Below, piece after piece: positions 1 through 64,000 of a stretch of 64,000 nt of DNA. The stretch lies in contig CAJINV010000004.1 in the NCBI GenBank assembly GCA_905178155.1, forward strand, positions 3,063,014-3,127,013. Direction: 5' to 3'. Numbering within the stretch: the first letter of the stretch is position 1; every line of letters begins with the position of its first letter. This DNA is from Amoebophrya sp. A120. Its lineage: Eukaryota; Protista; Dinoflagellata. The notes under the pieces were generated by a model that did no database searches, was not told the origin of the DNA, and saw nothing but the letters and a program-made list of their open reading frames with translations. Made by a program: the position numbers and the translations under genes.

Positions 1-1715
1 CGGACTCCTTGATCACCAGCTTGGCGGCCGGCTTTCCGCTTGGAGACTATGCACCATAAATTTCCCGCACGTGTACGTCAAAGTGCATCACAAGTAAGAA
101 TGGCACCAAATCAAAAACAACTTGTTATTCAGAACCAGAAAAGTTTGTCGTGCGGAAAACTACACATTTGTACGTCGTCTGCAGGAAATTTACTGAGCAT
201 AGGGAGCCCTTACCCTCAATGGCCTTCACGACGTCCTGGCCTTCGAGAACCTCGCCGAAGACCACATGCTTGCCGTCCAACCACGGAGTTTTGACCTGAT
301 CAAAATCAAATCAGGAGAATGGGATATAACAATTTCTGCAACAAGGAAGTGCATGGCCACAGATCAGCCCTCTAAACTCAACCAGTATGTAGGAGTAGTA
401 GTAGACAAATTTTTGCATGACTGGTGAGAAGTGTGATCTTCCTGTATTCATTTCTGTAGTACGCTAATATAGTACCGCACGATGCCTGCACCTGCTTGCT
501 GCTTGTGCCTAGTAAGTATCTTCCTATGGAAAATATGCGTTTGCGTATCAAAAGCAATATTAAAACAGCTGCCGTATCTATAAAAGAAGTACTGTGGTGA
601 TGAAGAACTGGGAGCCGTTTGTCCCGGGTCCGGCGTTGGCCATGGAGAGCAAGTACGGCTTTTTGTGCTTGTGCTTGAAGTTCTCGTCCTCAAACTTCTC
701 TCCGTAGATAGACTCCCCGCCCGGGCTATGAAGGTACAAAAGAACCTCCACTCATTTGTATTTGGCATGAACAACGATACAAGCGTCAGCAAGGGTTGAG
801 GCTTTGCATCACAAATTTGCACATCAGAAGACCGTAATGCCATGTGTTTAGGCTCCTGCAAGAACTTGCCATGCAAACAGTGCCAAGAGGAAAGGCGTGC
901 ATTATAGGTGCCTTGCATGACAAATGAGGGGGGTTGCGTGCACTCTCATACGTCCCATCGCCGTTGGTGAAGTCCCCGCCCTGAAGCATAAACTGCGGGA
1001 TCACCCGATGAAACGTGCTGCCCTGGTAGTGCAGCGGCTTGCCCATCTTTCCTTCGCCCTTCTCACCTTGTTTATTTGGGGTACTACGTCTGCATGATCT
1101 CGTACTTCTTCGCGATATTCAAACGAAAAAGCAAGTAAGTTGTAGCCTAGAAGCCCTGGTCTGATTCATCATCTGCGCAACAGTACACTACTTGTGCTGC
1201 ACAAGGTACCGGATGAAGTCCAACAAAATATTCCACCACGCGCTCTCGTGCAGCACCAGGATAGGTGGTATCAATGTAAACAATTTTACCTGTGCACAAT
1301 GCCCTGAAGTTTTCTGCAGTTTTTGGAACGCTCTTGCCGTACAGACCCATCACTATCCGACCTCCATCCTCACCGCCAAGTGTTACGTCGAAGTATACCT
1401 GATATGCACAAAAACTACACAATGTGATACTCATACTTATACTTATAGATCATTCCGGAGTTTTTGCAATCAAACACATCAAGAGTACTACAGCTGTGCA
1501 GCATCAAATAACCGTGACGCTACAACTAGTTACACCTCCCATGCAAAGAAAAGAACTTGGAGTCTGCTCTCGTAAATAAGCGAGAAGAGCGCATCAATCC
1601 TGTTCAGAAATAGAAGTACCTTGCTGGTAATCTTTGGTCCCTTCTTTTTCTTCTCGTCCGCGGCTACTCCACTAGCGGCGCCCAGAAAGGCGAGCAACTT
1701 GATGACTTGCCTCAT
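1..1715 (-). CDS. Cyclophilin-type peptidyl-prolyl isomerase with signal peptide (cyclophilin B-like), multi-exon, 3' end runs off the window
   Basis: Spliced exons read [122 protein letters not shown]...[37 protein letters not shown]. Three GT-AG introns and two TAT..ATA element introns. Confidence 0.95.
48..201. mobile_element. Introner-like TIR element (family B, degenerate) in cyclophilin
   Basis: TIR tatgcaccataaatttcccgc / gcaggaaatttactgagcata; flanks gagac/gggag (degenerate); removing element+5 nt gives [17 protein letters not shown]. Confidence 0.8.
727..950. mobile_element. Degenerate introner-like element in cyclophilin
   Basis: Ends tatgaagg / ctctcata; flanks cgggc/cgtcc; internal gcatcacaaa and gcatgacaaa; removing element+5 nt restores the conserved GDGTGGESIYG. 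Confidence 0.75.
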
Positions 1716-61058: not shown

Positions 61059-64000
61059 TCACGCGGATTGCAGTAAGGTTTTCTGCTGGTCCATTGCCGC
61101 CCCCAGCTGCTCCGCGTTCTGCAACAGTGCCTGCGACTGGGCCCGGGCCAGTTCCTTGCTCGAGATCTTGCCTCCGGCGGGCCCCCGGTGGTCCGCACCG
61201 CCTCCTCGCATGTGCAGCTGGTTGTACTGCTGGTCACTTATTCCCGTATTGCCGCCGCTCATACCACTCACGTATCAAGTCTTGCAGAAGTATCGTACTT
61301 CTAGTAGTTTTAGAGTGCATTTAAAAAGTTGGTCAGCATGACAAATTCCAGATTTAGTTCAGGAAGGATATATCCTTTGCCGTGCATGATTGCACTACTA
61401 CTACGTCGTCGAATGATCTCACGTACTAGTACAACGACCACGATATTTCTGCACAGGATATCGTGTCCACTCCCACGAGTGGTCCGACGCTGCTGCCTCG
61501 GACGAGATTCCTGGGGAGTTCGATTTGGTAGTACCAGGGGATGTGCGGGATGGCTTTCTTCTGGCGGAGGGCCTCGAGTCGCGCCGGCAAGTCGCGGTTC
61601 AGCGTGCGGTCCATCAAAGCCTGGCGCTTCACGCCCCGCTTCTGCGCTTCCAAAACCATACTCCCCGCAACTTTCCGGACCAACGTGTTGGACAGCCGGA
61701 AGGGCCCCGCATACTCGTGCTGGTCCGCCTGTTCCCCCGCGGGTCCCGCGCCCGCTCCCGCGCTCGCGCCGGGGTGCGTAATGTTGTGCACCACTCGCTC
61801 TAACGAGAAGCTTCCCCGGGTGGCCGCCTTCGGAGATGGGGCGGATTTATTGCTGTGTTGCTGGTCGTGATGCTGATGCAAGGACGCGAAGGCTGACGTA
61901 GTTGTGTTCGAATGATTGTTCTGGTGCTGAGAGGTGGAAGAGGAGTTTTTGGTTGTACCAGTATCGCCGGTTGCAACAGCAGCACCTGGTGCTGGGCGAT
62001 TTACATTTGCCATTTGGGCTGAAGAACCCCCGTGAAGATTATTCTCCTCATCGCCTTCTCGTTGTGTTCCCAACACATCAGCCCCGTCCTCCTTATGCAC
62101 CTGGTTGAGCACTTCCTGGTTGACATTCCCGATGGAACTCCGTACCTGAGACCCGGACGAGCCCCGGTCCTTCGAGCTCGACCGTTCCTTGGAGCTACCC
62201 CGCCCAGTGCTGCTCAAAATTAAGGAGCTGGTGCCGTGCCCAATGTTGCTGATGAAGTTTCCATATGAATTGCAAAAGTATCGCACTCGTAGTATTGCTG
62301 TTATGCATGACAAATGCTCGCTCCCAAGGTAAAACAGCATATACAAATTTCATTTGTAAAAATGCTAAGTCAATTTGTAATGCAATTCATACTAGTACGA
62401 TGCTTTTGCATCTGATATTCCAAGCCCAGTTTGCTTCTGGCTGTTCTGACTCCCGGTGCCGCCGGAAGAGGAGCTTGCGGACGTACTGTTAGCATTCGGC
62501 ACGAGCGGGACCGGCTCCACAATGTCCATTTCTACCAGCTGCGTCAAGGCCAAAAACTGCCGCAAAGCCTCAAACCGCGCTTGCCCGCTCCAGGGGGGAC
62601 AGGCAGAGGCAAGAATGTCAGCCATGGTCCACGCCGACCGAAAGACCGCAGCCATCTTCACAATCGAGGCGGGGAGAGGGTCCAGCGACTCGATGACTGC
62701 GAGCACGGACCCGATCATAAAGGTGTTTGGCCACCCGGCAACTTCCACCGTTTCGTCCAGATTCTCCTGGCAGGTCACGAATTTCCCGCTGGCGTTGGCG
62801 CTCTTGTCGTGCAGCTGCATGTGGCCGTAGAGCTGGAGCATGGCCATGGCCTCGCGAACGAATAACGCGTTGCCCAGCGTAATGTCGGAAATGTACTTTA
62901 CCTGATAGATCATGCACGATTTTTTGGATTTTCCTACATTTAGCATTTGTTCGCGTGGTACGCCCCCCTCATCAAGTTGTTCTTCGCAATCAATCACTAG
63001 TACCAGCAGTCATTCTCCTTCTCATGCAAAACCTAGCACCTAAATCAATGATGGCACCAATTGTCATGATGTCTGATGATCATCAACATCAACAAAAGCA
63101 CGATAAGTACTAGTGGCATTGGTATGTTTTCTTGGGGGCAGTTCAATTCGATGGACATGTATTCCCCGACAAGTTTCTCGCCAAATCCCTGCGTGTCCAG
63201 CCACACCCCCGTCTGCCTCGTTTCCTTGACGAAGTGCTGCATTACCCGCTCGTAGCCTGGGATCGTTTTTCGGTCGCGTACACACAGCACGATGGTCAAA
63301 TTGTGGCTTGGTTTGTTGTTGTTCGCGTTGTTTTTGAAATTCACCGTGTCGTTCTTTCCACCGCTGGACGCAAGTCCCGTGGAGTTGGTCCCGAAGTTGT
63401 AGTTCGTCGTAGCGGCGGCCCCTGCTCCACCTAAGGACCGCGGATTGCTCTTCACCCCACCGACTCCTGCATTAGCACCCCCGGCGCCCCCCGAACCCAC
63501 GTCGTACCGCTGCTCCCGTAATTCCTTGTACAGTTCGAGCAACGCGTATGACAGTTCACAACTCCACCTCCCCCTCATTTGTATTGCATGAACAGCAATA
63601 CAGACAGCCCCACCTGCGGAGCCTGCGCATGACAAGTTGATGCGCCTAGTGTAGTACTGTTTGGGCTTGCGGAATCTGTCATGTTGGAAGGCTAAGGGCT
63701 GGGCGTCCCCTCGTAAACTATTCTTACAAGCCGTAGCCTCATACTCGGTAAACTCTAGAAGAAATCTCTGGACAACGCGATTTCTATCGAAAGACAAACA
63801 CAACAGCGTCTGGGACGGCCGCGACGGAAGCTGTGTGAATATCTGGATAGAAATAGCCCTGAACAAAAACTTTTCCTAGCACCGAGGGATTAAAAGAAAA
63901 AGTAAGAAACGATGAAAACCGCTACTAAGACACAGTCCCCCCTACGTCGAAACAAAAACACCCTAAAGGTGGTAGCACCAGTAGTATCAGTAATGGTGTC
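61059..64000 (-). CDS. 3' part of a protein with a STAND/AAA-type region like that of ADCY10 / class III cyclase-associated NTPases; 5' end off the window
   Basis: ITLGNALFVREA (GNPLFVEE-like), SVLAVIESLDPLPASIVKMAAVFRSAWT (ARIDRL..LKVAAVIG-like), FRLSNTLVRKVAGSMVLEAQKR (F.H.LIRD.AY..LL...R-like). Confidence 0.6.
61273..61460. mobile_element. Introner-like TIR element family D (diverged)
   Basis: tgcagaagtatcgt / acgatatttctgca; flanks tcacg/tcgtg; junction GVDT|SGMSG. Confidence 0.85.
62264..62417. mobile_element. Introner-like TIR element family D
   Basis: tatgaattgcaaaagtatcg / cgatgcttttgcatctgata; perfect TSD ttcca; junction TGLG|NFISN. Confidence 0.93.

Follow-up and report, generated by a model that had tools for sequence, protein, structure and literature searches.

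Farhat et al. (2021, PMC7789003) reported 29,850 repeated introns, the introner elements, in the genome of the dinoflagellate Amoebophrya sp. A120. Their inverted repeats consist of TAT, seven variable nucleotides (nt) and a run of A, and they are flanked by direct repeats of 3-5 nt (5 bp in the example of Fig. S19). They form many families, fold into hairpins and have non-canonical borders without a consensus. The passages of that paper on introners give the border position as 'unknown', state that U1 was undetected in A120 and report no transposase. Here we analyse the elements of this kind in a 64,000 nt stretch of the A120 genome (contig CAJINV010000004.1, positions 3,063,014 to 3,127,013), which we call the window.

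Gozashti et al. (2025, PMC12130899) assigned A120 introners to several classes of transposable element (TE), one of them with a target site duplication (TSD) of 8-9 bp, and their supplement labels one A120 family with a 5-bp TSD and TA/TA termini as Ginger. Family 38 of their dataset (row 580) resembles the window elements in its terminal inverted repeats (TIRs), 5-bp TSD and TA/TA termini, but is about 810 bp long with Copia/Gypsy integrase-like homology, whereas the window elements have 109-285 bp and are non-coding; its authors state in the same source that it lacks the Ginger termini and TSDs. A further Amoebophrya genome is described, in the part concerning introns, as having canonical introns only (PMC12005148). 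The first-pass annotation of the window, made from the letters alone, had not recognised TAT termini with a 5-bp TSD as the mark of a known superfamily, a grammar that is already in print (PMC7789003; PMC12130899 supplement).

The window elements are these already described A120 introners. The exon at 8809-9306 matches an NCBI protein assigned to Amoebophrya sp. A120 at 100% identity, and the elements are repeated, RNA-supported introns, mostly without GT-AG. Organism, TAT + 7 nt + A-run inverted repeats (the A-run is weaker in family C), 5-bp direct repeats, non-canonical borders, hairpins and the multitude of families all agree with the published description. It differs in that the paper has the border unknown or variable, whereas the window elements fit one register; it gives repeats of 3-5 nt, whereas the duplication here is strictly 5 bp; and it argues against general mobilisation by a transposase, whereas we find a subterminal motif across families. 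Our literature search, which covered the text of the Farhat supplement but neither figures nor Roy et al. (2023, Curr Biol), found no stated register or internal motif. The system is published; what is new is the probable fixed register and the motif common to all families, which sharpen the question of the splicing mechanism. Removal occurs at the RNA level, and the cut likely has a constant position, a single base ahead of the TAT end, which would leave bases 1-4 of the duplication to the upstream exon.

We scanned the window for TAT…ATA pairs with a spacing of 70-450 bp, with 20 shuffles as control. An inverted repeat that matches at 14 or more of 20 positions is present in 25 pairs (shuffled mean 2.0), and a 5-bp duplication that is perfect and flush with the ends in 24 (shuffled mean 2.9). 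Decayed copies were added by self-BLAST, sequence reading and a motif-guided scan, one element being found through the motif described below. The curated set comprises 29 elements of 109-285 bp, all of the form TAT[C/G]…[C/G]ATA, with a perfect duplication in 19 and GT-AG after exact removal in only three (13634, 50885, 51193). Re-scan and curation thus returned the very counts and ends of the first-pass annotation; its families do share their ends, but a stricter criterion splits A, B and D into sub-clusters. An empty paralogous site at 35528-35619 has 92 nt identical to the site of the element at 36575, lacks the element and carries a single copy of the duplication. Short, non-coding and multicopy, with TIRs, a fixed TSD and an empty site, the elements have the features of miniature inverted-repeat transposable elements (MITEs). 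They are listed here, N/5 giving the matching positions of the duplication, and are named below by their first position.

48..201, minus strand: introner, family B, in cyclophilin; 3/5, differences synonymous
727..950, minus strand: introner, decayed TIR, in cyclophilin; 3/5, GDGTGG demands at least 3 duplicated bases of the upstream exon
7964..8133, minus strand: introner; 5/5, spanned by annotated protein P0001
8199..8466, minus strand: introner, family C; 3/5, F of P0001 demands at least 4 upstream-copy bases
8526..8806, minus strand: introner, family A-like; 4/5, RNA contig has upstream copy at position 2
13634..13781, minus strand: introner, family D; 5/5, GT-AG in 4+1 register
19818..20029, minus strand: introner; 4/5, RNA has upstream copy at position 3
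20477..20741, minus strand: introner, family A; 5/5, RNA length arithmetic
20839..21004, minus strand: introner, family B; 4/5, RNA has upstream copy at position 1
22661..22915, minus strand: introner, family A; 5/5, RNA length arithmetic
22974..23124, minus strand: introner, family B; 5/5, RNA length arithmetic
24436..24626, minus strand: introner, family D; 5/5, skipped (196 nt) in RNA contigs of two samples, whole in DNA contig
26136..26306, minus strand: introner, family D; 5/5, DNA contig only
28147..28256, minus strand: introner, family E; 4/5
35528..35619, minus strand: paralogous empty site; 92 nt identical to 36575 site
36575..36810, minus strand: introner, family C; 5/5, RNA joint ambiguous owing to paralog
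36903..37011, minus strand: introner, family E; 3/5, chimeric RNA joint, 3 or 4 upstream bases kept
37058..37222, minus strand: introner, family D; 5/5, RNA skips 170 nt
43378..43662, minus strand: introner; 5/5
43785..44028, minus strand: introner, family C; 5/5
47109..47373, minus strand: introner, family A; 5/5
50885..51139, minus strand: introner, family A; 5/5, GT-AG in 4+1 register
51193..51432, minus strand: introner, family C; 5/5, GT-AG in 4+1 register
51939..52124, minus strand: introner, family D; 4/5
54170..54328, minus strand: introner, family D, in adaptor-complex mu gene; 5/5
54952..55126, minus strand: introner in adaptor-complex mu gene, between Pfam profile positions 48 and 50; 5/5
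56339..56495, minus strand: introner, family D; 5/5
58362..58511, minus strand: introner, family D; 5/5
61273..61460, minus strand: introner, family D; 3/5
62264..62417, minus strand: introner, family D; 5/5
63547..64000, no strand: 30th, longer element of the same end family as 727-950, running past the window end; interior non-coding

Of the 14 elements in the two stretches compared, ten are missing from the RNA contigs together with five further nucleotides, three by a direct joint, five by length arithmetic and two with one-sided evidence. The direct joints run from 24430 to 24627 (196 nt = 191+5, element 24436; X3 and X5), from 36898 to 37013 (114 nt = 109+5, element 36903) and from 37052 to 37223 (170 nt = 165+5, element 37058), the last two in X3, X4 and X6 from one sample. 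Record gaps of 54, 377 and 745 nt in the RNA contigs correspond to the exact loss of 19818, 20477, 20839, 22661 and 22974 and of the 155-nt GT-AG intron at 20165-20319, and 8526 and 13634 have contig support on one side. No displayed contig piece conflicts with this rule; the displayed pieces do not include 7964, 8199 or 26136, and the joint at 36575 is ambiguous. GT-AG introns are absent from the same contigs, which therefore represent spliced RNA. A DNA contig (X1 record 8; X1 may be the assembly's own sample) covers 23098-27499 without a difference and with two elements intact. Summed depth reaches up to 10^5 over the elements vs about 30 elsewhere, which reflects many related copies. An in-frame cryptic GT-AG lies within 12 nt of 10 of the 29 elements, three of these being the exact cases; the one at 20839 is excluded by an RNA piece boundary.

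The host genes lie on the minus strand, as called by a codon model for 26 of the 29 elements and settled by Pfam frame or RNA for the three weak calls. With element+5 nt removed, the median stop-free run on the shorter side is 70 codons on the minus strand (28 elements), compared with 36 and 40.5 codons when one or two extra nt are removed and 33 on the plus strand. Removing an element with one copy of its duplication restores the frame automatically; the proper test lies in the RNA contigs, which bear the rule out. The interrupted genes include a cyclophilin (Pfam: PF00160) and an adaptor-complex medium subunit (Pfam: PF00928, below the Pfam cut-off per exon). Both in-frame fusion on loss of element+5 nt and removal from RNA without GT-AG had been proposed in the first-pass annotation, and both hold in these data; of the two conserved genes it named, the cyclophilin was recovered, and its AP-3 mu gene at the level of an adaptor-complex medium subunit.

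Where the two copies of a duplication differ, the base in the mRNA shows which copy was kept, and six copies are informative in this way. In RNA, at least one base is kept from the copy of the upstream exon at 20839, at least two at 8526 and at least three at 19818. The joint at 36903 is a chimera of both copies, in which the upstream exon retains three or four bases; keeping all five would make a stop. The conserved GDGTGG of cyclophilin demands at least three upstream bases at 727, and the F in the annotated protein P0001 at least four at 8199. A single register fits all six: the intron would be N5-TAT[C/G]…[C/G]ATA-N1N2N3N4, with four duplicated bases left to the upstream exon and one to the intron start (4+1), which would restore the mRNA before insertion exactly. 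All three GT-AG cases sit in this register as well. Its direction is set by transcription, while the element itself is symmetric, which argues against excision from DNA.

Further attempts on the register used the second public assembly, JACKZZ01. A stop-codon test was uninformative, with no stops in any register among the 18 confidently framed of 41 mismatched duplications. An apparent excess of synonymous mismatches there (12/18) is absent from the window copies and was dropped, and locus L042 has only an unspliced gene call, so its annotated protein could not serve.

A pattern scan of metagenome contigs yielded at least 157 loci of JACKZZ01 (L001-L157), of which 155 (476 kb) were used; about 610 such stretches are estimated. 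These loci hold near full-length relatives, at 69-94% identity, of 20 of the 29 window elements, and family-A pairs have an exact 5-bp duplication in 53 of 56 cases. Among 225 elements collected without using the duplication as a criterion, it is exact over 5 bp in 172, matches at 4/5 in 36, at 3/5 in five and at fewer positions in 12, and duplications of 6-9 bp occur in none; the rule of termini and TSD put forward for the window therefore extends beyond it. The removed length ignores the reading frame ((length+5) mod 3 = 71/70/67, n=208), and both orientations are found in genes (26:15, 16:13 and 8:6). At 90 oriented perfect target sites, G at N5 (25/90) and AG at N3N4 (9/90) are at background, and there is no bias to GT or AG.

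Most of the window families are also present in JACKZZ01, though reported to be strain-specific; family C is absent from the sampled loci. One gene of this assembly has no annotated A120 counterpart, and an Erythromycin-esterase-family gene (Pfam: PF05139) at L076:571-2304 is split by an element. An 834-bp element at L027:632-1465 has family-A ends, a perfect duplication, a size near that of published family 38 and no Pfam match.

The motif TTGT[CGA]ATGC occurs in all 29 window elements and hence in every family. Of its 74 matches in the window, 63 fall inside 5,734 of the 64,000 bp (9%), with a mean of 1.0 in shuffled elements, and it is present in 56 of 56 family-A copies collected without it. 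It mostly starts at +32-33 or +40-42 from an end of the element, and in the window one copy follows the next at a distance of 31-33 bp in 10 of 19 cases. We infer that the motif is a putative transposase binding site; being common to all families, it argues for one mobilising protein. For 165 of 191 family-A ends, positioned from the duplication alone, substitutions at sites called coding number 0/315 in TAT/ATA, 42/2100 at other TIR sites and 14/840 in the motif, with 4/180 at uncalled sites (p 0.003). This weakly suggests that the host maintains TAT/ATA for splicing, whereas the motif is maintained by mobilisation alone.

The first-pass annotation had proposed one trans-acting system for all families and advised looking for long copies with a transposase. 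The shared motif favours the former; the latter came up empty, with no transposase family matched by any of 48 open reading frames (ORFs) in long elements of 457-1255 bp or behind unpaired ends. The 30th element at 63547-64000 has a 300-bp non-coding interior at 69-77% to L058:3862-4492 (631 bp) and L009:4001-5255 (1255 bp), both with family-A ends. This interior contains stops in all frames and is possibly a relic of the autonomous element. Ginger2/TDD transposons, as presented in the sections of Bao et al. (2010, PMC2836005) on termini and TSDs, share TIRs, a 5-bp TSD in TDD-4 and TDD-5 and a T-x-T start with the window elements. However, Ginger1 and Ginger2 end in TGTNR instead of TAT[C/G], and their TSD has 4 bp, the 5 bp of the window elements being found in the TDD-4/5 subgroup only. 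Membership in Ginger was rejected on the termini. A Gypsy-integrase-like DDE transposase is likewise missing from the 48 ORFs, and integrase-like homology is reported for family 38 only.

With moderate confidence, we favour the reading that these are non-coding MITEs moved in trans by one unfound DDE transposase, probably integrase-like, and removed by a relaxed spliceosome at a fixed register. The transposase would bind the subterminal motif and insert the element with a 5-bp stagger. The transcript would then fold end to end, a TIR hairpin joining both ends; such a fold is predicted for 28 of the 29 elements, with 24 at z ≤ -2 and four canonical introns near zero. N-TAT[C/G] may be read as a 5' splice site short of G+1 only, since the inferred 4+1 register puts T, A, T and C/G at donor positions +2 to +5, like the four RNA-supported canonical donors of the host (GTATC, GTACA, GTATT and GTATA). 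The 3' site would be fixed 4 nt past the stem rather than by AG. The unrelated introners of A25 start with TTA-R-R, and the commonest A25 borders listed in the text of Farhat et al. start with TT, likewise N-T-A (PMC7789003). In the 15-nt introns of Stentor the branch A lies six bases from the 3' end, as stated in the part of that report on branch points (PMC9505925); one of the two A residues in the terminal ATA (at -5 or -7) is therefore a possible branch point. The introns of Fritillaria borealis offer a parallel, since they too derive from transposons with TIRs and TSDs and are removed by an adapted U2 spliceosome; they differ, in the portions of these papers dealing with borders, by preferred AG-AC/AT borders and a retained U1, while the A120 elements have no border preference (PMC11282704; PMC13326754).

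Several points weigh against this reading. The GT…AG borders of U2 introns are found in only 3 of the 29 elements and are not enriched at the 90 oriented sites. To our knowledge there is no direct precedent for a spliceosome that needs neither G+1, AG nor a pyrimidine tract, Fritillaria keeping its preferred dinucleotides. The first TAT:ATA pairs are predicted to be paired at p>0.5 in just 17 of the 29 elements. The RNA evidence consists of assembled contigs labelled 'RNA?', the comparison covered 14 of the 29 elements, and the raw RNA run X9 gave nine partial, uninformative reads. All six informative copies lie in genes on one strand; the upper bound of the register comes from 36903 in one sample, and register 3 is ruled out by 8199 through an annotated protein, not reads. 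The depletion of substitutions in TAT is sensitive to thresholds, with p up to 0.14 under looser calls and an A/T-only background. The transposase is missing among the 48 ORFs that lie within or next to long or unpaired elements, and the text of PMC7789003 reports none for A120.

Possible, though we doubt it, is that the same elements are removed in the same register by a non-spliceosomal, hairpin-reading endonuclease and a ligase, the motif or its duplex serving as a splicing-factor site. Neither border needs sequence, symmetric elements work both ways round, the strong predicted folding sets the elements apart from the four canonical introns, and U1 is undetected in A120 (text of PMC7789003). 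Euglenid nonconventional introns are likewise MITE-like, with paired ends, slidable direct repeats, no GT-AG and a 3' overhang longer than the 5' one; as summarised in two of the reports on them, those of Euglena need paired ends with overhangs of 3 nt and 5-6 nt and exit as circles (PMC12501133, PMC11282704). The stem joining both ends is predicted here in 28 of 29 elements, but the euglenid signature N3CDG…CH'GN5-6 differs from N1TAT…ATAN4, and circles are demonstrated in euglenids. Against this reading, the fall of T, A, T and C/G exactly on host donor positions +2 to +5 would be a coincidence of about 1 in 6, the motif decays after insertion at background rate, and the text of Farhat et al. 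gives an N-T-A start for A25 too and lists 83 of 89 spliceosomal proteins in A120 (PMC7789003). A bolder form of this idea, which we consider unlikely, is a third, spliceosome-independent splicing system that recognises the TAT…ATA hairpin and makes its cuts a single base ahead of it and four bases beyond it, so that the MITEs of one transposase could land without coding cost in any exon, in any frame and in either orientation. We find it distinctly unlikely that the families owe their spread to several unrelated systems or to reverse splicing rather than to one transposase. The several TE classes with one 8-9-bp TSD (introner data of PMC12130899) and the lack of an A120 transposase in the text of Farhat et al. 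(PMC7789003) speak for this, but the TAT class has one duplication length, one end motif and a subterminal motif at fixed distance despite unrelated interiors, long elements with different ends have the 300-bp interior in common, and the duplicated unit differs from the spliced intron.

A cut that floats within the duplication in several registers, as a figure legend of Farhat et al. implies, with the six copies agreeing by chance, seems improbable to us. The informative copies are few, and annotated A120 borders spread over many dinucleotides. However, 6/6 copies fit one register, the RNA at 8526, 19818 and 36903 rules out its mirror image (1+4), and at 36903 one form of the joint is listed, with no alternative. 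In fam2 of Gozashti et al., 69% of the annotated donors are N-T and 68% of the acceptors A-N; this spread is symmetric and best read as aligner behaviour on perfect repeats, and we did not use it for the register. Excision from DNA in some life stage, in the manner of internal eliminated sequences, or a template switch of reverse transcriptase across the hairpin between direct repeats has very little probability. A hairpin with direct repeats is a classic substrate for both processes, run X1 may represent just one life stage, and rare variants are lost from contigs. Against this, DNA contigs run unbroken through the elements at single-copy depth; the retained copy tracks the direction of transcription despite the symmetry of the element; GT-AG introns are missing from the joined contigs as well; and retention would break cyclophilin and mu adaptin, while element lengths ignore the frame.

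Some other features of the window stand apart from this question. Every gene examined is encoded on the minus strand, which matches the unidirectional clusters reported for Amoebophrya. A partial gene duplication at 35310-37317 has two alternative 5' portions (35535-35777 and 36543-37317) with apparently one common last exon, and only one portion has an introner at the common site. A short tandem repeat array with a AACTTGATTCC-like unit lies at 36380-36535 inside an intron or untranslated region, and tandem duplications unrelated to the elements lie at 31044-31885 and 32529-33523 (about 430 bp at 85%; shorter repeats at 71-85%). A decayed family-A remnant without duplication at 30382-30544 is apparently outside coding sequence. 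The candidate at 29566-29825 (perfect duplication, no motif, GC content 0.55) and other motif-guided pairs were dismissed as chance. An Rfam search of the window gave no matches, nor did the family-A end among viral contigs.

More than half of the A120 introns are spliced with no GT-AG and, it appears, no U1, and their direct repeats blur the splice borders. If the 4+1 register holds genome-wide, it would define where tens of thousands of introns truly begin and end, turn 'no consensus' into N-TAT…ATA-NNNN and predict a possible location of the branch point. It would also make the splice signals (TAT/ATA) separable from the mobilisation signals (TTGT[CGA]ATGC), the latter being a handle on the missing transposase. 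Together, such a register and the motif shared across families would make the question of the splicing mechanism directly testable.

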